64,000 nt of DNA from Sphaerodactylus townsendi (GCF_021028975.2 NC_059438.1:20584001-20648000), one strand, 5' to 3'; positions 2,647 through 26,221 are shown, counted from the first letter of the stretch. Made by a program: numbers and translations. Notes: generated by a model not told the origin, from the sequence alone.

Positions 2647-3483
2647 CATCCCCGGAGGGCTCTGGGCGGATGTGTTTGACAGGTAAGTAGGACCAAACGT
2701 TCAATCTAAGTTTCTTGCTTTTGCAAGTTAGTACCAGCAACTGCATGATCTGGGAGAAGTCGAATGCGTGCTGCTACACGAACCCCCTTAAAGAAGATTC
2801 AGTGGCTGCAGCTCAAGCAGTAGAACGTCCTCTTTGTGCGGAAAAGATCCCAAATTCAGTCCCTAGCATCGCCAGTTAAAAGGATCTGGTCGTCAGTGAT
2901 ATGAAAGACCTCTCTCTAGGAATCTGGAATGCCTCTGCCAAACACAGCAGACAATACTAACCTTGTTGATCAGTGGCTTGACTCAGTAGAAGGCAGCGTT
3001 GTACACTGTACTTGTCAACTATCTTCCGCAAGGATTCAATCCAGCACTTTGCAAATTAGCAAGGCACCACTGCCCCAGTATGTGCTTCTAGCATGAGGAA
3101 GCCACAGCTGAACTATCTAATTCTCTCCAGTCAGTCACAGCTGGGTTCCTTTGCAGCTCCCTCCCTTGCATTGGAAACAGCCTGGTGGAATCCATCGTTG
3201 GCACAATACTGACACCTTGTGTGCAGCTATGGAAGTGTCACCGATTTAAACCTCAAGTATTTTCTCTGATTCCATCAGGAACACTCAAAGAGAAGCGAGG
3301 CGCTGCCATTTCCTTGCATAGGGCCCAGTGTCTTTACATGCATGCTGGCTGCTGACTTAGGACAGAGATGTCAGCCTCAGGAAGCTTCTTCAAAGAGATA
3401 AATAGCCAGGTGTCAACAACGTATCGGTGACACTTCACTGCAAAGTTATGGATGATCTCTTTTACGGACTTCATACAGACATT

Positions 3484-3759
3484 AAGAAGAAGAAGAGTTG
3501 GATTTATATCCCCCCTTTCTCTTCTGTAAGGAGACTCAAAGGGGCTTACAATCTCTTTTCCCTCCCCCCCAACAAACACTTTGTGAGGTGGATAGGGATG
3601 AGAGAGCTTCAAAGAACTGACTAGCCCAATGTCACCAAGTGTTCGAGTGCACAAGCTAATCTGGTTCACCAGATAAGCCTCAAAAGCTCAAGGGGCAGAG
3701 TGGGGAATCAAACCTGGTTCTCCAGATTAGAGTGCACCTGCTCTTAACCGCTACACCAT
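3484..3759 (-). mobile_element. Same tRNA-derived SINE, reverse orientation
   Basis: Reverse complement of 522-829 with a (GAA)n tail. Confidence 0.8.
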
Positions 3760-5369
3760 ATTAAACGTGTAAGACTCCTATTCCACTTGCTTTAAGTCAG
3801 CTTGAAGTGAAATCCTTTATTGGGTCAACGAGCCTCAAATTCTTTAGTGGAACAACGAGCCTCAAATTCTTCCTCTGATTTGGGATTCAAATATCCTGTG
3901 AGGTCATGGACCAGGCGTGCAGAACTTGGTAGCCCACCAGTCATCTGTTGGGGCTAGCCAGATGTTTGATAACTCTTCTCTTTTTACAGGCCCAGGCAAG
4001 CAGCAAACTCAAGTACTTTCTTGAACTTCTGACAGACTACTGTACCTGGCTGCCATGTGGCTTGAACTGAGCCAACCAGATGTGAAGGTCAGAGTGTCAA
4101 ACCACTCTGGATCGAATCCTGCCATTGAAACTACCCTTGGGCAGTCACACTCTCTCAGCCTCACCTACAATCTTGTGGGGACAAAATCAGAGAAGGGGAA
4201 CAATGATTCTGTAAGCCGCTTTGGGAGCCAATTGGGGGAAAGCTGAGTGTAAACAAACAAATATATACTGTCAGACACAATCGAGCCTATTGAGTCTAAC
4301 AGAACTAGACACATCTAACTTTGCATAGGATCACGTAGCCAGGCGGGGCCTATTCAAGGTGGAAATCATGATACTGTGCGATGATGTCTCATGCAGCTTG
4401 TTGTGTCTCATGTCTTACTGTGGTCATCTCCAGACCTAACAGGGAGATAATGTTGTTTAGGCTGTTTGGAAGTTAATCCTTCCTCATCTCCATGGCAATA
4501 AGTAGTGATGATGAGAGGTTTAAAACAACAGCCGGGGATGCAGAGCAGAATCAGGTGAGGTTCTGGAGAAGCGTGGTCCTTCGTACCCAGACAAAGAGGG
4601 GAGAAAAACCACCAGTTAAATCTGGGCTACATGTTTTTAGAACACTTTCAACTCATGGAGTTGTCTCATGGAGACTGTTATTTTAGGGTGGGACTGTGAT
4701 TGTGGGGTTTCCTGCCCCCGACTACTCGGAATTTCACCCTGAGGTCCCTCCCCTCCCGAAACCCCACTGACTCCAGGCATCCACCCCATAATCTCCTGGT
4801 ATTTCCCAATCCATAGCAGCCACAGCTAGTCACAACAATAGCTGTCTACTTTCAGATAAAGTCTTGTTATAAGTATATGTGTACAAAACCACAAACAATA
4901 CAACAATACCACAAGGTATCTGAAATACGGACTCTGATACCACTGATAGTAATCCTGCATAGTACAAAACAAAGATCTTGTGCAATACAATAAAAGTCCA
5001 CTAAGCTAACTGGAAGCCAGATGTGTACGGGCCTCATCCAAGTTTCAAGTCCAGTGGAACATAAATGCCATATGTCTGTGCTTCCAAAATGTACAAAATA
5101 TTGTCTGAATGGCAATAGTTTGAAACCATCAGGAATTGCAGTTGGCTCTGAAAACTCTGGCTGCTGCAGAATGTTAAAGGGCGAGATGGGTACACATTCG
5201 GGTTCTGGTTAGCTTGTTTTGCACAGGACCTTCGTTTCATACTACACAGGATTTTTATCAATGTTATTAGGGTCTGTATTTCAGATATCTTGTAATACAG
5301 TTGCATTGTCTGTGGTTTTGAACACTTAGCCTATACTTATAACGAGACTTCATTCTATATAACAAGAAT

Positions 5370-6230
5370 TCTAATCTGGAGGAACCGGGTTTGATTCTCC
5401 GCTCTGCTGCCTGAGCTGTGGAGGCTTATCTGGGGAATTCAGATTAGCCTGTGCACTCCCACACACGCCAGCTGAGCGGCCTTGGGCCTTGGGCTAGTCA
5501 CAGTTCTTCTGAGGTCTCTCAGCCCCACCCACATAAGAACATAAGAACATAGAAGAATAGAATAGAATAGAATAGAATAGAATAGAATAGAATAGAATAG
5601 AATAGAATAGAATAGAATAGAATAGAATAGAATCTTTATTGGCCAAGTGTGATTGGACACACAAGGAATTTGTCTCCGGTGCATATGCTCTCAGTGTACA
5701 TAAAAGAAAAATACATTTGTCAAGAATCATAAGGTACAGCAAGGTACAGAACATAAGAACAAGCCAGCTGGATCAGACCAAAGTCCATCTAGTCCAGCTC
5801 TCTGCTACTCGCAGTGGCCCACCAGGTGCCTTTGGGAGCTCACATGTAGGATGTGAACGCAATGGCCTTCTGCGGCTGTTGCTCCCGATCACCTGGTCTG
5901 TTAAGGCATTTGCAATCTGAGATCAAAGAGGATCAAGATTGGTAGCCATAAATCAACTTCTCCTCCATAAATCTGTCCAAGCCCCTTTTAAAGCTATCCA
6001 GGTTAGTGGCCATCACCACCTCCTGTGGCAGCATATTCCAAACACCAATCACACGTTGCGTGAAGAAGTGTTTCCTTTTATTAGTCCTAATTTAGTGTTT
6101 CCTTTTATTAGTCCTAAACACAGGGTGTTTGTTGCGAGGGGGGAAGGGCAAGGAGATTGTAAGCCCCTTTGAGTCTCCTGCAGGAGAGAAAGGGGGGATA
6201 TAAATCCAAACTCTTCTTTTTCTTCTTCTT
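5370..6230 (+). mobile_element. tRNA-SINE (5370-5532 and 6118-6230) interrupted by a CR1-like fragment and a second LINE tail with (AATAG)n
   Basis: The SINE halves are collinear with 522-829. The insert holds a (CATAAGAA)n tail plus CR1-type 3' sequence (5750-6117, minus), and (AATAG)n-ctttattggccaagtgtgattggacacacaagg (5556-5749), which resembles Rex1/RTE-type tails. Confidence 0.75.
5556..5633. repeat. (AATAG)n microsatellite
   Basis: About 15 perfect pentamer units. Confidence 0.97.
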
Positions 6231-9200
6231 CATCTGAAAGCAGACAGCAATTGCTGTGAGCCTTCTTCAATGTAAATTCTATTGGGCTGCACAGTGTGCA
6301 CTGATCCCCACAATTCAAATGGTGTTGGTCCTACAAGCTAGAACTGGACTGTTTGATTTCTAAATCCATTGTTCAATGGCAGATGCAAGATCTGAGCTGA
6401 GCTCAGCGTGTTTTTCCTTCTCCAGTTGCAGGACCTACTGTGAGGCCTTTAGATTTGTGAATCTCACCGTCACCTTCTCTCTTTCTCACTCTGTTCTCCA
6501 CAGTGGTTGGCCTCATGCCCCAACATCCGTACCACTTCCTCGAGCTCGGTCTCCTGCCTGCACATGACTGATACCTCTGTGCATGAATCCTGAGGGCTCC
6601 TTATGAAGATGGATTCACAGTTCACACCACTGCTGCCCCCTTTTTATTTCAAATAAATAAATTGCCTGTCATTTTCAATTTCTTCCCGTTGTGGTTTTTT
6701 CCCCTTCCCCATCTTCAGTTTTTCTTTCTTTCGCCCGGCATCGCCACTGAAGCAGACACGAGCCCCGAGTGCAGTTTTCTCAACAGTAATATGAAAGGTT
6801 TGCTCTCGAATCAGTATCACGTTTTCATGAAGATCCGTTTTACTGCTGTTAGTTCATATTCAAGTCAAGTCAAGTCAAGTAGTATTTATTGTTTGAGCCA
6901 TTGGCTATAACATCCAAAAATACATACAGTTAAAACATTCAGATTAAAATAATAAACTTATCTTTAGGTTACAATATAAATGATTTATTCTCACTATATC
7001 CGAATTAAAATGCCCCATCAAATACTTCCCATGTCGGGTGTTTTTACAGCTTCTTCATACTAAACTAAGTTGACCACAAGCTCATTGAATCATCAGTTCA
7101 AACAGTGCTTTAAATACTCTGCTCGCATTTTCCTAGCTGCCAGTTCATATTGATAGTAGTCAATGTTTTTAAAATATTTTAAATAATTTTTTACTTTTGT
7201 GTTGTTATAAATATTTTTTTAAATTTTTTAAGAATGATGCAGTTGTGCTGAGATGGTAGAATGGGGGAAAATACACGTAAACATACCTGTTTAAGACAAC
7301 AAGGTGTCATAGGAAAGACTTTGTTCCAAACAGGAGTAATCTCCTCAACTGAACCATCACACCACCGTTTTGCAGCTTTGACAAGAAAGCTCAACAACAG
7401 CCCACACACGGTGACCAGGGAGATTAGGGTTGCCAACCTGCAGGTTATCCTCCTGGGATAATGATTGATCTCTAGGCAACAGAGATCAGTTCACCTGGAG
7501 AAAACAGCAGAGAAGATGGACTCTGTGGTGTTATACCCCATTGAAATCCCTCCCTTCCCCAAACCTCTAACTGTTAAGATAACTTTATTCACAACAAATC
7601 TGAATGCTGGGTAAGTATTCCCCCGCTTCTCTGAATGATGGATATAAAAGCCAAAATACACAATACACATGACCTTGAGTTGGGATACTCACAGGCGTCC
7701 ACCCTGACTCAGCCAGATGTTCACACAACAGCTTTAAAACTTCTCAATCCCTCCTTGTGGCTCATGTGCTGTGAGGAAGATGGGGTGGGTTCAGGCTTCT
7801 CCTCTGCACCATTTGAGACAGGATGCTTTTTTGGCCTTCCTTGGGCTCCGCATGCTGGGATGGAAGGGGCAAACTGCTTTTTTTTCACCTGTAACTGACC
7901 TGACCTTTCAACTGGGTGAAGGGCCACCTTCTTTAGGATCTGATGGATGCTTGAATGGAGTCATAGTGGACTATCAGAACCAGTGTAGTGTAATGGTTAA
8001 GAGTACTGGAGACCCAGTTTGTCAGTCTGTGAGACCCAGTCTGTGAGACCCAGTTTGAGTCCCCACTCATGGCATGGAAGATGGCTTGGTACCTTGGGTC
8101 AGTCACACTCTCTCAGCCTAGCCTACTTCACAGGGTTGTTGTGAGGATAAAATGGAGGAGAGTAGAATGATGCAAGCTACTTTGCGGAGAAAGGCAGGGT
8201 AAAAATGAATTAAATAAATTAAATTAAATTAATAAATAATGTTAAAGAAATATCCGTAGTAGTTAAGGAATGTTAATGTTCTTTTTATGATAGGGCCTGG
8301 ATCCAGTCTCCTTAAGCCAAAATAGTTATACTAATTATTGTTCTTATGATTAATGCACTGTTCCTTGTTGGGAAGATATAGGGTTGCCAACACTAGCATC
8401 AGGAGATTCCTGAACATCTGGGGGCAGTACCTGTGGAGAAAAGAATCTGAGGAGAGGTTTCACCTAGAATCTATGGTATACCATTGAGTTTGCCTTCTGA
8501 AGCTGCCATTTCCTCCAGAAGTGATTTCTGTAATCTGGAAATCTGTTGTAATTCCACAACTCCAGGGCCCATCTGGAGATTGGAAACCCTAGGAGGCGAG
8601 CATCCCCCACCCCCCAGACATGTTTCACAGATGAAAACAGAGATGCTCTGGTAATCCTCCTGTTCCAAAGGATCAGGGCTTGATCCCCCTCCTACCCTTA
8701 CGGTTTGTCATCCTTACCTGCCTTGGAATCATAACCTTCCCTCTTTTTTTTTAAAAAAAATCAGTGTTTCATCTCACAGTGGCCCTGGCTGCAGCCTGCA
8801 GGTATTAATAAACTGCACCAAATCATACCCATTCTGCAAAATGTAGTCTGCACCAAGATAGGTACGGAGAAGGACAGATAGAAAACACAGTGGTGCATGC
8901 ATTGGACTCAAGCTACATCTCCTCTCAATAATAAGGTCTCAGGGACGACCAAAGCCAGAGGAACTCAAGGGCACATGACTGACAACATTTGCAAACTTCT
9001 GCCCCAAGACAGAAACAGTGGTTGTTTTTTTTAAACAGGGCAGATCAGAACACAGGAAGGATCAGAGCATAGAGTGAGTGAGCTTTGTCCACATCTGCCT
9101 TTAATTTGCTTCTTCCCTCCCTCCGAAAAGAGAGGCAGTCACACTTCCAGCATCCTGTCCAAACCCCTCCTCTTCTCTCCCCTGAACCAATGACACTGAG

Positions 9201-9477
9201 ATCACCATTACAGAAATACTTTGCTATTCTGGCTCCGCGCACCCCTGTGCAAGTGCCGGAGACGGTTTGCTGGGCCTTCTCATCCTCCATTTTCTCCCCC
9301 CCACCTTCAAAGGACAGATGGTACATTCCTCTGGTACAGCATTCAGACTAGAGATCCATTCTCTAGTAAAGAGCTGCTGGCAACCCAGCGTCTGCTCGCA
9401 GAGAGATCCCCTCCGGCTGGGCAGAAGCGATTCCAGAGCCTGGCACCGACCCCTCCCCCATCTCACTCCAGGGTGGC

Positions 9478-12400
9478 ATGACACTTTTTGGCAGCAGAGA
9501 AGCGTGCTGGAGATGTAAGTACCGACTGTGCTCCCCTGATCCCATTGTGTGTGTTCTGCATGCATTTTTTCTTGCTGCCTTTCAACCCCCCAAAAAAACA
9601 AGATGGCAAAGATGCTGTCTCCAGAAGGCAAAATGAGTGGGGGGTCTCAGAACTGGTGACGCCCCCCCATCCCCCACAGTCCTCGCTTGAACGCTATGCA
9701 CACGGAGATGTTGTTCCCAAGGGTTAAAAAAATGGGGGTTATTTCATTGCATTTTGATTGGAGTGTGAAGGGTTTTTTGTTGTTGTTGTTCCGGCTTGCA
9801 AATGGAAGCTAGCAATTCTGCAGAAAATGTCCCTCACTTGCTGGAAGAAAGTTAGATTGGAAGGGGAATGAGAATGTGGAAGGTCTGACTGCCCTGGAGC
9901 CGTTCCAGAGATGGTTAAGGCCACTGGGGTAGTGTGTTTTGCACCGTGGGCTACCAAAAACAAACCAGAAGGGATCCTCTTGGAGGTTTGTATTTGAAAC
10001 TCAAAATAAATTGACACAGGATGCTGATCCATAGGGACGTTCAATTAAATTTTTTTGTTCTTCCATTCGGGGCATTCTTAGCCTATATCATGAAGATCTC
10101 TCTTCCCTATATATATGGGGAAATGATCTGTATACCATAAATTTGTATGCCAAATAAAGCATCTTCGGAACTGAATGGAAAAAGAGAAGCTAAATCAAAT
10201 GGGGCTCAAGGCAGAGGGATATTGTTTGTAGTTCTGCCACTAACTCACCATAGGGCCTTGGGCAAATCCCTTAATGTCAGATTTCTAAGTATGCCTTTTT
10301 TAGATTTTAGATGCCTGAGCCCAAGTTGCAGAAGTGCTGGAAGAATTTAGTATCAATGACAGTAGCAACTACCCCACATTTCTGGCAGTCACGAAAAAAC
10401 TGTCTCAGGCAGACAGGAATCCCATTGATGTGGGCTCTGGTGTCTAGAGGGGACGTGGGGGAGGAGCATTTGTCTGGGCAAATGAGGGCTGAAGTCGGAG
10501 AAAGCAAACTTCATTATACCTATTAAATGTTTCCAAATGGCAACCCCTATTCTCCTGTGTTACATTAATTCTCTGGTCCTAAGTGTATTTACCAGAGATA
10601 ACTTATGCTGACTTCAAAGTGATTATTTGCACCAGAGTAAAATATGTTCAAGCTTTGCTACTGTAATTAAAATTTTAATTGAAGGTGATATTCTGTTCAT
10701 TTAAAACAGCTGCAAGAACTAGGAGCTGGTGTTTTTTTTGAACGAAGAATTATTCTTATTTTTATATGGCAACTTTAACATGCACGGGGCTTTTCAGAGT
10801 AACAAGACAAAAAAGCCCCTGCCCCAAAGAGCTTACAATCTACTATTTGCATCAGGGGAGGCAAGAGAAGGTGGGGTAAAAGACAGAAGCAAGAGTAAAC
10901 AGGAATCTTTCCTGGTCTTTCTAATAGGTTTTGCCATTAATTTGAGCCATGGGGATGAGTGGATTTTTTTGTGGGTGAGTCAGCATTATGAGTGAGCAGC
11001 GGTCTCCTTGCTGTCCCCTTTGGCACCCCCTACACTGGTATAAGTGCCATCTCCCGGAATACCACCCAGATTTTTTTTCATGAGCCTGAAAAGATGAATT
11101 CTCCTACCTGTGAAGCTGCAGACAACTGCATGACCTTTGAGACAGGCCTTGCAAGTTTGTTGGCATCATTTTGCCTGCTTCGTGGAGAGCCATCCTGAGC
11201 AGTGCCTTCCTCACCATCCCCACCTCTCCTCTGCTGTTTCTCCCTCTTTGTCACATTTTCCTTTTTTCCTAGATCCAGACATGGCCCAAGAACCTAAGCT
11301 GAGCCATACCCGGTCTGGTCAGAAGAGGCAACATAGTGGAGGCCTGTACCAGTGAGTTAACGTAACAATTCTTCATGTGGGGAAGGATGGTGAATAAGGA
11401 TGGGTCCGTTTTTGGAAACTGGAGATGCTCCGCAATTGATGGTCAAAAGGCTAGAGATGAATGAAGAATTTGTTCATAATTAGTTTCAGGAAGGTATACT
11501 CTGTTTCAGATAAAGTTGTTAGTACGGTCAGTTGAGATGCAGCCGTCAAGAAAATGGTATGTTTTCACATTAGAATATAGTCCCGAATGCATGAGTATTT
11601 ATAGTTCATTGAACGACTATCGTAAAACTTTCAAACGGATAGGGGGGAGCAAGGCTAGGTAGGCACTAGGACCCAGGGAGAGCATTCTACAACAAAGAAG
11701 GTCCGGCATATTGAGTTCTGTGGCGGAGGAATATGCAATCTACTAACATCTTTTTGTGAGACAGTCTATAGCCATGTTGGTCATCTGTTAGGGTTTCCTG
11801 GTCCCCTCTAGCCTCCAGCTGGGGCCTAGGATTGGCAGCTCCAAGTTGGGGAACTCCAGGAGATTTGGGGGTGGAACCTGCGGAAGACAGGGACCTCAGC
11901 GGGGTACAATACAGCAGAGTCTACCCTCTAAACCAGAGGCGTTCCTCCCATTGGGCAAAGTGGGCAGTTGCCCAGGGCGCCAGCTTGTGGGGGGGCGCCA
12001 AAAATGCAGGTGGGATTTTTTTAAATTTTCAGTGTTTTTTTCTGTTTTTGGCCTGCAGGGGGTGCAGTTTTTAGGCTAGCAGCACCAAAATTTCAGGGAT
12101 TTTTCGGGAGACTATCCTAATGATATCACCCAGGTTTGGTGAGGTTTGGTTTAAGGAGTCCAAAGTTATGGACTCCCATAGGGAGTGTCCCCATCCCCCA
12201 TTGTTTCCAATGGGAGCTAATAGGAGATGGGGGCTACACCTTTGAGGGTCCATAACATTGGACCCCCCGAACCAAACTTCACCAAACCTGGGTGGTATCA
12301 TCAGTAGGGGCTCATGAAGATACTCTGAAATTTTGGTGCTGCTATCTTAATAATTGCACCCCTGACAGCAGGCACACCCTAAATTGCCCCAGATTCTCCT

Positions 12401-21400: not shown

Positions 21401-24400
21401 AATGTGAAAATATTTTAAGTTTGTTTACAAAATGTGGAAATTAATTTCCACATTTTGTAAACAAACTGAAATATTTTCATATTGTAAAAAAAATAATTAA
21501 AACAAACTTTGTATTTATACAAGCGTGTTTGCCTTGGGTGCCAACTGGATTGGTTGACTAATGGACATGGTGTAAGGCAGCGTCACGTGCAAGTTCTTAC
21601 TATATAAGATGGTACCATTTGAGAAGTGACAGGGTGACTAGTTTTGGAAAACTTGAAAGTGGTTTGCATTGAATTACCTGCATTCTTTCTCCTTTTGCAA
21701 CAGCTGTGATCTGGACTATGAAGTATACAAAGAGGATTTTCCATACAGGTAGGTTTAGTCCTTTGGCCTCCCCCCCTTCAGTATCTACTCTTCCTATTCT
21801 TTGGGTATCATCACAGTGAAAGATAACACAATTTTAACCAATTACAGGCCTTAATATCTACCCTCCTTTAATACGAGCTGCTATATTTGAAGAATTGTCA
21901 AAATGGGCTTTCTCCCCATCTTCTCCTCTGTAGGGTCTATGAATACCAGAAGATCCCTCCTCTTATCAGTCATATCCCTGTCAAGACCAAGCGAAGCCAC
22001 CTAGGGTCTGGGGGCAAGAGCGCTCTGGGCCCTCACACAGGGTTGAGGAGCAGCAGCAACTCCATGGCAGGCCGTACAAAGTGTGAGTGTTTTGACAAAA
22101 AGACTATGGAAAGGGTTTTTGATGTCAAGGTCCCTTGGGTCATCTTTACTGTTAGCCTATTTGGCATGGTGGTCCTTCATTTTATCCTATCCTACCACCT
22201 CTATGCTATATTTGTCTTGTAACAGCAAAGCCGCTGGCATAGATTAGGCTGAGTGAGTGAAATAACATAGAATATTCACTAACATTCCAATTGCTTGCTG
22301 GACAAAACGGTGAGTATGCAGTTCAGCTTCTCTGAGGTAGGGGGAAGCCTTCAAAAATCGAAAGGAAACCCAGTAAGAAACAAGATGTGGATTGCTGCAA
22401 GCTCCATATTGAAGTTTTACAGGTCCTGCAGAATTGAGATAGATCCCTCAGGGCCCAGGTCTCATTTGAAAAAGTGTTTCGCCAGGCTGGGGCCAAAGTT
22501 GAAAAGGCTCTGGTTCTGATTGAGAACACCCAGACACTTTTCGAGCCAGGCAACGCCAATAAGATGTTATTGGCTGAGCATAATGCCCTTGGAGGTATAC
22601 TGGGTCCTCTGCCACCTCATAGGACCCACCCCCTCATTCAAACTTGCCACCTCATGACTTCTGGGGGAGATGGTGCTTCGGTTGCTTTGAGCTCTCTAGA
22701 GCTCCCTGCCACACATTACTGAAAAGGGCAATTATGCCTGCATAACAGCAGACAGGTTTGACTATAGCCTCCCTAGGAGCTCTGGGGACCTTTAGTTTGA
22801 CAGGGGAATTAGTCAATAGAGCCACTAGTTCTGGAAACATCCAGGATCAGTAGGTATGAGCTTTCGGCTTTCAGAAGTAGACTCCCCGACCTTTCCACTC
22901 ATTAGTTCCGTTTTCCCTGTGGTTTTTTTTAAATTTTCATTTGTTTCTAATCTTTTATTCTTAAATCCTTTTTAGGTTTTTGTAACTCTTTGTGAAAAAT
23001 AATTTTTTTTAAAAAAACCCTTGCAGCCTAATTAGCCTGCTTTTGGCCTTTTTAAAGAAGTCAGTTTTATGACTTCCTAACACACGTGCCAGTGATTTAT
23101 GATTTTCCTTTCCATGACAGACAAATGAACTGCAGTCACAATTCTGTAGCTCCACCCCTCTCCCTGGGCATTTGAGAAGTAGTGATAGTATAACTTAACC
23201 CAGCCATGCCATATCTTTGCAGTACGAGCAGAAGAGCTACACTCCATCAAAGGGGAACTAAGTCAGATCAAAGCCCAGGTGGACAGTTTACTGGAGAGCC
23301 TGGATCGGATGGACCAAAGGCGGGAGCATCCGACAGGTGAGGAGATTTGCATGTGTTTAAGAAGCCAGCATTGTCTTATTGCAGAATTCAGTGTATGAAT
23401 TAACACCTCCTCCCCCACCCCTCAGCCTCAAAGCAATTGGGCGTCTTCCACCTTGGTAATACTCTCTGGTATGTTTTTCATTTGCATTGTTTTCCAGTTC
23501 ATCAGTCCCAGTCTCCACTTCGAGATCTTCACTTTGATAGAATTGTTTTTAGTTATATTTCATAGTCTGCCTCAAATCTCCATGAGAAAGGCAGGTTATA
23601 AATGAAGTTCATCAATATTATATTTAGCACCATCGTTATGCCTGACACTTTATAGTGTAACATATGAAAAATAATAATAATTAAAGAGAGTCCCTGCCCC
23701 AAAGAGATTACAGTCTATTTACAGCATGGGAATAGCAACAGAAGGTGAAAAAGGAGAGAAAACTATGCATTTACCGGTATGTAGTGGTGAAAAGGAAGCA
23801 GTGTTGCCCAAAAAAGAGCTTGCAAAACAAATAGGTTTTAAGGACACAAATACAGCAGGTACTCATAACCGTTTCAACATGCAAGAAAGTTGTGGCGCTT
23901 AGAAGAAGAAGAAGAAGAAGAGTTTGGATTTATATCCCCCCTTTCTCTCCTGCAGGAGACTCAAAGGGGCTGACAATCTCCTTGCCCTTCCCCCCTCACA
24001 AAAAACACCCTGTGAAGTAGGTGGGGCTGAGAGAGCTCTGAGAAGCTGTGACTAGCCCAAGGTCACCCAGCTGGCACATGTGGGAGTGCACAGGCCAATC
24101 TGAATTCCCCAGATAAGCCTCCACAGCTCAAGCGGCAGAGCTTGAAAAATATCCAGTTCAAGTCAACATTTGGGGCAATTCTATAGTGGCAAAATGCTGC
24201 ATTTTGGCAGTGTAACATCTTTGCAAACACAGACCATAGATAATATCTTTTATGTTCTTATCAACATTTTATTTATCTATTTGAATATTTTTAGTCTTCC
24301 TCCCCCGCCCCCTGCCCCATAGGGCCTCAAGGCCTACCCTGCAGGATTACAGATAATTTTAGCCAGCTTCACAACAGATTTGTGAGGCAGGCTAGGATGA

Positions 24401-25904
24401 GAGACAGACTGGCCCAGTCATCCAGTGAATTTGAAGACATGATCAGCTATATTGAGTCTCTTCAACTTCAGTACTGCCTGGTCTTTTCAACTGGAAATGC
24501 TGAGGATTGGACCAAGGACTTTCTGCATGCCAAGCAAATGCTGTACCACTGAGCCACAGCCCCTCCCTTAGCCAGCTTCATGACTGCGGGGAGATTTGAA
24601 CCAGAATGTGCCCAGGGCCAGCACAACACTGTATTACACCACACTCATTATATAGACGTGGTCTTCGGGAAGATGTCTTAGAAGCTTAGGGGGGTTTGGA
24701 GGCTCTTCAGCACTTTTCATGCACCCAACATAACTTTGCAGGCCTGAGCACCCTTCTCAAGTGCTCGCACACAACTTCACTAGGCCTAGGAAACTTATCT
24801 GGTGCTACCACCCACCTCTGAATCACCCTCCTCCTCCTCCCGCAGGTTCCAAAGAAGGCAAGAAGAAAAACCTCTCCAGTGGGGAGTCTTCGTATTCACC
24901 TAGTGATACATCCCAGAAGAAGGAGAGCGCAACCAACGACAGACACACTGCTACACAGGAGGTCGACAGTGCCGACGAGAGCACAGATACCGAAGAAGCG
25001 GTAAGGAGATCACACCGAGCTTTGCCCTGCCAGAGTGAAATCTCAAAGATAAAATAGGCAGAAAGAAATGTTGTTTCCCTCTCTCGTGGAAATTCAAGTG
25101 TACTGAACCATGAACAGTGATGATATTCCATGTTCTACCAGGCAAAGAGACAACAGACCGCATCCAGTGGTAGGATCCAAAAATGTTAATAACAGGTTCC
25201 AATGGTGGTGGGATTCAAACAGTGGCGCCGCCGCACACACGCACCTCCAGTCCCTATTGGGCAGGGAGGTTGCTTTAGTAACCCCTTCTCGGCACTCAGA
25301 AAAAATTAGTAACCACTTCTAGAGAAGTGGTGAGAACTGGTTGGATCCCACCTCTGACCGCATCTACCATATAGTCACCAGATCTAGCCGTGACCTGACT
25401 GAATCAGACCTTCCATGGCTGTGATATTCCTACACCAAACAGAATTGCCCACCTATCCAGAATGCTTGCCATCCTTCTAAATAGATGTTGCAGGACAGAG
25501 TGAATAGTCCCAGCACACACCCCACCGTTGCACCTGAAATTTTGAGATTATTTATGTCCATCCCACCTTTCTCTCCAATGGGGACTCAACTTCTCACTTC
25601 CATTTTATCCTCACCAAAGCCCTGTTAGGCTAAGAGTGCGTGACCGCTCCCAAGGTCACCCAGCAAGCTTCCTTGACGGTGTGCGTGTGTGGGGGGGGGG
25701 GGGGGGGTTTCCCAGTTTCTAGTCTGATACTTTTAACAGCTACACCACGTTGACTCCTGTATCTCCCCACCCCAAACAATCCCATCTGCAAACTGTGGTT
25801 TTAAAAATCCCAGAGTTGTGACTTCTGAAGAGAAGGGTGGATAAAAGCATCTTGTTTCTTTGCAGGCAAGAAATCACAGGTTGGATCCCGAGAGCAGCCA
25901 GTAA
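9478..25904 (+). CDS. hnRNP C / RALY / RALYL-family protein lacking an RRM in this window (205 aa; 190 aa from the Met at 11281)
   Basis: join(9478-9514,11273-11351,21704-21748,21934-22082,23223-23336,24846-25000,25866-25904). All introns are GT-AG, phases 1,2,2,1,1,0, total 618 nt. Protein: MTLFGSREACWRYPDMAQEPKLSHTRSGQKRQHSGGLYHCDLDYEVYKEDFPYRVYEYQKIPPLISHIPVKTKRSHLGSGGKSALGPHTGLRSSSNSMAGRTKLRAEELHSIKGELSQIKAQVDSLLESLDRMDQRREHPTGSKEGKKKNLSSGESSYSPSDTSQKKESATNDRHTATQEVDSADESTDTEEAARNHRLDPESSQ*. It matches family motifs DIN(L/M)AxEPK, DLDYDxxRxDxYxR, PxKRxR and the zipper [30 protein letters not shown]. The first exon (9478-9514) is less certain than the rest. Confidence 0.85.
11934..12546. 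mobile_element. hAT-type non-autonomous DNA transposon with a long internal inverted repeat, nested in an older MITE (about 11789-12648)
   Basis: Perfect 8-bp TSD CTCTAAAC (11926-11933, 12547-12554), termini CAGAGGCGT...ACGCCACTG, internal arms about 12050-12370. Confidence 0.85.
13856..14514. mobile_element. hAT-type DNA transposon inserted in a reverse tRNA-SINE (about 13587-14535)
   Basis: TIR CAGGGGTGGGCAATTA / TAATGCCCAGGTCTG; TSD CACTGCAC / CACTACAC. The SINE resumes after the insert. Confidence 0.85.
15828..16127 (-). mobile_element. Full-length tRNA-derived SINE, reverse
   Basis: Reverse complement of 522-829. Confidence 0.85.
16174..16254. repeat. (TTTG)n microsatellite
   Basis: About 20 tetramer units. 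Confidence 0.97.
17146..17525 (+). mobile_element. 5S-rRNA-derived SINE with a nested small DNA element (about 17214-17381)
   Basis: 5S-like head (gatctcatcag..agaagataagcagggt...gtacttggatgggag) and Sauria/BovB-type tail (gaggaaggcaatggcagaccac). Nested piece has termini CAATGGCGTA / TACGTCACTG. Confidence 0.6.
21322..21563. repeat. Spacer-less 242-bp inverted repeat (121-bp arms)
   Basis: Centre GGAAATT|AATTTCC at 21442/21443. Arms run cattagtcaaccaatcca...tggattggttgactaatg. Confidence 0.92.
23902..24143 (-). mobile_element. tRNA-derived SINE, reverse, 5'-truncated
   Basis: Reverse complement of the 3' part of 522-829 with a (GAA)n tail. Confidence 0.85.
25165..25356. mobile_element. hAT MITE (CAGTGGT[A/G]GGAT family)
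   Basis: Perfect TSD ACCGCATC; TIR CAGTGGTAGGATCC / GGATCCCACCTCTG. Related copies at 45885-46022 and 58457-58593. Confidence 0.85.
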
Positions 25905-26215: not shown

Positions 26216-26221
26216 AATAAA
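26216..26221 (+). terminator. Candidate polyadenylation signal for the RALY-like gene
   Basis: AATAAA about 310 nt after the TAA at 25902-25904, followed by a GT-rich stretch (tgtgttgtttaggtgtgtgg). Confidence 0.5.

Follow-up and report, generated by a model that had tools for sequence, protein, structure and literature searches.

The hnRNP C family is described in PMC11288931 as three members built around an RRM. According to PMC9943658, the hnRNP C reference protein has a basic region of ~40 residues in front of its leucine zipper, with 11 K/R and no acidic residues, and hnRNP C1 lacking the RRM (deltaRRM) retains tetramer formation and binding to long RNA, while a preference for U stretches comes from the RRM. 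PMC6889891 states that the RRM is required for the promotion of Ron exon 11 by hnRNP C1. In PMC5499869, RALY deltaRRM pulls down no RNA, and a review (PMC13147222) attributes the formation of RALY oligomers to the coiled coil.

We analysed a stretch of 64,000 nt from the gecko Sphaerodactylus townsendi (NC_059438.1:20584001-20648000), which is called the window throughout, with positions counted from its first letter. Judged from its sequence, the window holds a fourth hnRNP C/RALY/RALYL paralogue, which is related to the other three by descent and is not a canonical RRM hnRNP. The gene model, its protein and both of the first exons that are compared below are already in the databases, and what is new is the link between these two exons. 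The RefSeq names of the fourth gene are automatic ('RNA-binding Raly-like protein', 'hnRNP C-like'), therefore it is easily confused with RALYL.

Results

The reading frame of the window gene consists of seven exons, namely a mini-exon and six more with AG/GT ends, and encodes 205 amino acids with the stop at 25904. It is identical, letter for letter, to the RefSeq gecko model XP_048372044.1 (P0125). The features of the gene are the following:

9277..9477, + strand: likely 5' untranslated part of the first exon or proximal promoter, from mapped orthologue extensions
9452..9471, + strand: acceptor-like pyrimidine tract (15/17 pyrimidines) and CAG, 6 nt before the ATG; candidate acceptor of an internal exon
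9478..9514, + strand: coding mini-exon, 12 codons and 1 nt (phase 1), which replaces the RRM exon; from the frame and the RefSeq match
9515..9521, + strand: splice donor GTAAGTA after AGAT, with the letters of the RALYL mini-exon donor, from the exon comparison
11273..11351, + strand: exon 2, 79 nt, ends in phase 2; homologue of the RALY/RALYL exon after the RRM exon, with the invariant second methionine (M16)
21704..21748, + strand: exon 3, 45 nt, DLDY motif; the RALY/RALYL counterpart is the FDYDY exon of 48 nt
21934..22082, + strand: exon 4, basic region; its last 40 residues have 7 K/R and no D/E
23223..23336, + strand: exon 5, leucine zipper, 114 nt in all four paralogues
24846..25000, + strand: exon 6, start of the acidic tail
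25866..25904, + strand: last coding exon with the stop; AATAAA at 26216

The initial annotation of the window had placed an ATG at 9478 (ggcATGa), 37 open nt, a GTAAGT donor at 9515 and an AG|11273 acceptor with an in-frame junction, and all of these are exact. It had also described the mini-exon as an alternative N-terminus. The exon is indeed real, but in the window gene it is the main start and not an alternative one.

The window gene lies upstream of EXOSC6-like (RNase_PH) and AARS1-like (DHHA1) genes, both on the opposite strand, and its head-to-head neighbour is, judged from its motifs, a putative SLC7A10-like gene. Between the latter and the window gene, positions 6504-6660 (+) have a strong acceptor (long pyrimidine tract and CAG), an AATAAA near 6652 and no nearby donor, and look like the terminal exon of some + strand transcript. 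Further upstream, at 2647-2689, the readable letters that follow a run of N contain a donor (cagGTAAGTA, 2683) that is stronger than any other from 2.6 to 11.4 kb, and an acceptor-like site precedes the run; this stretch could be an upstream non-coding exon of the window gene or of another transcript.

A search of the gecko genome with an in-frame HNRNPC zipper query returned four loci on four chromosomes (C5, C9, C14 and C15). Exon reading assigns C15 to HNRNPC, C9 to RALYL, C5 to RALY and C14 to the window gene: the best match of the C5 RRM exon is the solved RALY domain, and the C9 exon query returns proteins named RALYL. The four loci presumably go back to the two vertebrate genome duplications, with the putative human paralogon being 8q21/14q11/16q22/20q11. 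In the window gene, RALY and RALYL the exon sizes are 79/73/76, 45/48/48, 149/161/164 and 114/114/114 nt, respectively, and the phases of the exons after the RRM exon (2,2,1,1) agree among the three genes, HNRNPC being comparable for the last two exons. An RRM query gave 11 genome matches, only three of which are strong exons: those on C5 and C9 and one on the unplaced contig C638, which reads as HNRNPC. HNRNPC is thus broken in the gecko assembly, its RRM exon being absent from its chromosome; the HNRNPC exon that follows the RRM exon was looked for in the assembly and was not found, and the HNRNPC locus on C15 (L009) has a run of N. The 5' region of HNRNPC harbors a 35-nt exon (L009:7507-7541, - strand) with the ATG frame MASNGERRR, phase 1 and a GTAAGG donor; splicing from it past the RRM exon would yield an HNRNPC start that lacks the RRM.

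A protein search with an in-frame zipper query yielded the orthologue set, 103 proteins among 113 candidates, which are mostly automatic gene models. The start of exon 2 is present in 64 of the 103 matches, the other 39 being fragments, single-exon frames or second-Met starts. The mini-exon peptide stands before exon 2 in 52 of these 64 and has exactly 13 residues in 48 of the 52, and MTLFG and WRY are retained in 45-48 of the 48 copies of that length. The remaining 12 models have a different N-terminus: two bird CLEC18 read-throughs, two marsupial alternatives, two diverged beaver models and six others. Since the peptide is kept in 52 of the 103 matches, the reading of the mini-exon as a chance open frame is removed. 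The named carriers are geckos, snakes, lizards, turtles, crocodile, birds, platypus and marsupials. The conservation in other sauropsids, amphibians and fish that the initial annotation proposed to look for is therefore borne out in squamates, turtles, crocodiles and birds, but no fish or amphibian is found among the named matches of our word-based search, which reaches close relatives only; thus the age of the mini-exon is shown only to the amniote ancestor. Additionally, in P0218, a bird-like protein known from an assembly only, on a contig of no more than 2,575 nt, the two exons are already contiguous (the one case among 19 such proteins). This suggests spliced RNA as its source and is the only hint of the splice that stems from reads.

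Two further groups of models deserve mention. In the birds P0180 and P0189 exons of CLEC18 (C-type lectin) are fused in phase onto exon 2 of the window gene, so CLEC18 likely lies directly upstream of it in birds; in the gecko a search of the window and of 60 kb upstream gave no CLEC18 match, and the SLC7A10-like gene is there instead. The beaver and squirrel copies (P0219-P0221, P0223, P0199-P0200) are far more diverged, with zippers 68-81% identical and first exons altered or missing, which suggests relaxed selection in placentals.

The absence of the RRM from this gene is consistent across the models. The family RRM profile matches none of the 103 orthologue matches, against 67 of the 120 listed RALYL proteins that served as a control. 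The precomputed Pfam annotation of the orthologues also gives 0, a fresh Pfam scan gives 0 of 22 (chosen mostly by length), and the 41 further cluster members hold no credible RRM (one noise row, score -1.1). The suggestion of the initial annotation that this paralogue kept only the RRM-less isoform agrees with these counts and with the assignment of the three genomic RRM exons to RALY, RALYL and HNRNPC.

One could argue that an RRM exon persists upstream, either unseen in the assembly or too diverged, and that the mini-exon is merely an alternative start, as it is in RALYL. The unreadable run of N upstream does precede the strongest donor of the region, and in the same assembly the RRM exon of HNRNPC itself is off its chromosome, on an unplaced contig. 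Therefore the assembly alone cannot prove the loss of the RRM. However, the RRM is missing from all the orthologue matches and further cluster members as well, and the readable part of the 60 kb upstream and the window has no RRM-like stretch (best E 0.24 by tblastn and 3.6 by profile). As a remnant of the RRM exon, the readable 36 nt in front of the 2683 donor are unsupported: their likeness to RRM-exon ends does not exceed the background (18-159 of 277 background tails score equally). Also the first residues of exon 2 drift among the 52 carriers (LD in 44, IN in 4, others in 4), whereas RALYL keeps IN. A persisting RRM exon thus deserves very little credence. As for exon 2, the proline at residue 14 had been considered as a mark of the lost last RRM strand; it is present in 1 of 52 orthologues and this idea was dropped.

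The mini-exon could also be mainly a leader, with the working protein beginning at M16 in exon 2. All 39 aligned orthologues have M16, several gene models begin with it, and the first exon of the beaver copy is diverged. However, M16 is also the ancestral residue in RALY and RALYL, while at least 90% conservation is found at 8 of the 13 mini-exon positions and all of the length variants stay in frame. We consider a start at M16 very unlikely and treat the ATG at 9478 as the start of the protein.

A likely extent of the first exon is suggested by longer gene models. The N-terminal extensions of the skink and Komodo models (P0130, P0132) map to contiguous DNA at 9277..9477 (tblastn E 5e-7 and 2e-4), and a piece of the platypus model has a weak match at 9287-9334 (E 0.03). 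The more likely reading of this sequence is a first exon of at least 240 nt. In the alternative reading the mini-exon is an internal exon (9472-9514) that follows an upstream non-coding exon, and the short form arises by exon choice and not from an internal promoter. This would fit the good acceptor-like site 6 nt before the ATG (a weaker one lies 34 nt before the RALYL ATG), the strong unused donors at 2683 and 4555, and the lack of a TATA box or CpG island near the ATG. However, the extended skink and Komodo models read through the acceptor-like site over ~200 contiguous nt, and extended RALYL models from anole, bat and mole-rat resemble, by eye, contiguous DNA upstream of the gecko RALYL exon. 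Additionally, the ~500 nt around the ATG show a hint of constraint in the genomic variation of a related organism (organism B; four contig runs, one study): positions 9078-9564 have 2 of the listed substitutions versus 9.4 expected (Fisher p 0.009; ~0.07 when corrected for the scan). An internal exon is unlikely in our view, and the first-exon reading is kept below. The same comparison counts 30 substitutions over 1,751 nt, none of them in the 308 coding nt (p 0.003), and the 69 nt around the mini-exon have 0 versus 1.1 expected, an interval that is too small for power.

The RRM-less RALYL isoform which the initial annotation cited does exist: the curated human NP_001400253.1 (P0267, isoform 18) starts with MTMYKSKRRHQRY and continues with INMAGEPK. 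The short-start peptide without an RRM motif is found in 27 of the 120 RALYL matches listed (204 were found). The gecko RALYL mini-exon has a length of 37 nt and a phase-1 end, and it sits in the 94.8-kb intron that separates the RRM exon from the one after it. This mini-exon is the single match of a scan of RALYL (120 kb) and RALY (80 kb) for M-T...R with a phase-1 GT, which is a directed test, since the motif was taken from the window mini-exon; the database proteins confirm the exon independently. Comparison of the two gecko mini-exons gives 23/44 identical nt, with the common start ATGACA and the common donor AGAT|GTAAGTA (the last four exon and seven donor letters). The RALYL short isoform (human NP_001400253.1; gecko XP_048363641.1) therefore has the same 37-nt phase-1 exon and 13-residue M-T...R-Y start as the window gene, joined to a homologous next exon without an RRM. 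In contrast, in RALYL this start is one of two and is basic (KSKRR), whereas in the window gene it is the only start seen and is not basic. In the basic and zipper exons the two genes have 30 of 87 aligned residues in common.

How far this likeness exceeds chance was estimated in several ways. Open 37-nt ATG..GT stretches as such are common, with 490 in the 928,000 bases scanned and 4.2 expected per 8,590 nt by simulation. The M-T...R+T|GT signature, which was defined only after both exons were known, is expected 0.003 times in the available 8.6 kb by simulation, and its strict form occurs 0 times in 20 Mb simulated. On the + strand from 2683 to 11272 the mini-exon is the better of only two phase-1 ATG/donor candidates. 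When ranked by likeness to the RALYL exon, the window exon is first against 11 other 37-nt candidates with a fair donor (928,000 bases); among all 490 candidates with any donor it is joint second by letters and joint third by residues. Across species positions 2, 3, 4, 6 and 12 agree, while positions 5 and 7-11 disagree, with codons 7-11 being basic (KRR) in RALYL and not in the window gene. When the Met and the junction Tyr are left out, 10 of 200,000 column shuffles reach the score of the profile match, and of 488 local decoys one beats the gecko peptide and two lie above the orthologue mean. The flanks of the two mini-exons (200-500 nt) align no better than background (for the upstream 500 nt, 51 of 299 pairs reach the score).

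Some partial likenesses were also seen in these scans. There is one MT..R+T|GT on the minus strand of the window, and a second 37-nt ATG..AGAT|GTAAG lies in the RALYL intron (L032:4026, - strand), ~300 nt before the RALYL acceptor; the latter stretch is in no listed RALYL protein and is therefore treated as a decoy. An ATGGTA is present upstream of both mini-exons (window 9318; RALYL -145). In the gecko the open frame that begins there runs across the main ATG in another frame, and in the gene models of some other species this stretch is in frame.

In RALY the first-exon comparison proposed by the initial annotation gave a different outcome from RALYL: a search of the 12.1-kb intron behind the RRM exon gave no counterpart of 37 nt, but one weak 34-nt candidate. 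The latter (ATG..T|GTAAGA, MSAF...K, with Tyr at the junction) lies in L023, 424 nt upstream of the exon at 3907 (+), and is possibly a decayed counterpart or a chance occurrence. The HNRNPC intron was scanned for a mini-exon over 2.6 kb only.

It could be that both mini-exons are real but independent, each gene having gained its own intronic ATG and phase-1 donor, so that the likeness comes from shared constraint (phase 1, GTAAGT) and chance. The differing middle codons, the flanks that do not align and the lack of a clear copy in RALY are what one would expect then, and candidates with an ATG and a phase-1 donor are frequent (25 in the RALYL intron at a donor score of at least 3.5). However, across amniotes both genes hold 12 codons and a T, the M-T, the M/L, Y/F and S positions and the R before the donor. 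Chance is also opposed by the shuffle and decoy tests and by the simulated rate given above. Two independent gains seem improbable to us, and the mini-exons of the window gene and RALYL are likely homologous, a reading that rests on ~5 of 12 codons.

The age of the shared exon depends on the relationships of the four genes. Trees were calculated from the 96 columns of the basic and zipper exons; they are unrooted, and the window gene is placed on a long branch. A tree of 17 sequences (nine chosen orthologues of the window gene, six RALYL, one RALY and one HNRNPC) joins the window gene with HNRNPC against RALY with RALYL (SH-aLRT 95 / UFBoot 97), and the alternatives have AU p values of 0.039 and 0.044 and KH p ~0.05. 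With four sequences the same pairing has UFBoot 96, and the AU test rejects no topology (p 0.10 and 0.12). If this split is right, the ancestor that the window gene shares with RALYL lies at least two duplications back under any rooting, and if the root is between the two pairs, this ancestor is at the root of the family. Since the RALYL short form starts with a matching exon, the origin of the short form likely lies before the gene duplications of early vertebrates. The proposal of the initial annotation that the RRM-less form predates the duplications thus appears likely, as inferred from the homology of the 12-codon exon and the 96-column tree, but no matching exon was found in RALY.

The zipper is the best-kept part of the protein: in 39 full-length orthologues the mean frequency of the top residue is 0.92, compared to 0.65-0.82 elsewhere. 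Its best PDB match is the helix of the hnRNP C tetramer (1TXP, E 3e-4). In the AlphaFold model the sole helix spans residues 106-138, and the confidence is low overall (pLDDT 59.8, pTM 0.23) except for residues ~101-140. Before the zipper there are 7 K/R in the window gene, 11 in HNRNPC, 10 in RALY and 9 in RALYL. An Atlas search with P0125 returned three unnamed clusters from chordates, which have no Pfam family in common, and, as a lead only, one RRM cluster at 0.83.

Discussion

Our data indicate that hnRNP C1/C2 (HNRNPC), the nearest paralogue in the tree, has the basic exon, the 114-nt zipper exon and the acidic tail in common with the window protein. In contrast to HNRNPC, the window protein has no RRM, fewer basic residues (7 vs 11), a shorter acidic tail and a long branch, and its oligomers are predicted only. 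In domain content it corresponds to engineered hnRNP C1 deltaRRM and RALY deltaRRM (PMC9943658, PMC6889891 and PMC5499869). However, these mutants are laboratory deletions, whereas the window protein is natural, and they differ in RNA binding, which hnRNP C keeps (PMC9943658) and RALY loses (PMC5499869). Since RALY deltaRRM gives no RNA pull-down (PMC5499869), the basic region of the window protein may be inert.

We propose the following explanation. The ancestral gene would have made a long form with the RRM exon and a short form from an internal promoter, the latter with a 13-residue start, with both spliced to a common following exon in phase 1. RALYL would have retained the two forms after the early duplications in vertebrates, while the window copy would have lost the RRM exon, leaving the short form as its sole product. 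For the resulting protein of 205 aa, disorder is predicted everywhere but in the zipper helix, by which it could form oligomers alone or mixed with hnRNP C, RALY or RALYL subunits. Such mixing would lower the number of RRMs that read U tracts in each particle and thereby its sequence specificity, and the basic region may retain a weaker, sequence-independent contact with RNA. In our judgement the whole explanation, in which an ancestral internal first exon led to an RRM-less fourth paralogue acting as a zipper subunit and is still used by RALYL, is likely, although with less assurance than the homology of the two exons.

Duplicated genes can partition the splice or promoter isoforms of their ancestor, with one duplicate keeping a single ancestral isoform. 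The case proposed here differs from this concept in two respects: RALYL, which keeps both forms, is not the closest paralogue of the window gene, and the retained form is without the defining domain of the family. We found no literature on the shared first exon, on the isoform-to-gene reading or on the human RALYL short isoform in the scope searched, which lay mostly outside subscription journals.

Taken as a whole, and with somewhat less than an even chance of being right in all of its parts, the evolutionary scenario would be as follows. The hnRNP C ancestor, before the genome duplications, made an RRM-less subunit from an internal promoter, and this subunit became a gene of its own. The gene would persist with a nearly frozen zipper in reptiles, birds, monotremes and marsupials, and would be eroding in placentals. 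Its product would tune the specificity of hnRNP C/RALY/RALYL particles, and the human RALYL short isoform would do the same job.

If the two exons are homologous, RRM-less subunits would be an ancient and selected part of hnRNP C biology, and this would be a clear case of an isoform becoming a gene. The contribution of the RRM to the tetramer, specificity versus affinity, would then be testable with a natural protein. Also, studies of RALYL may be measuring two functionally different proteins.
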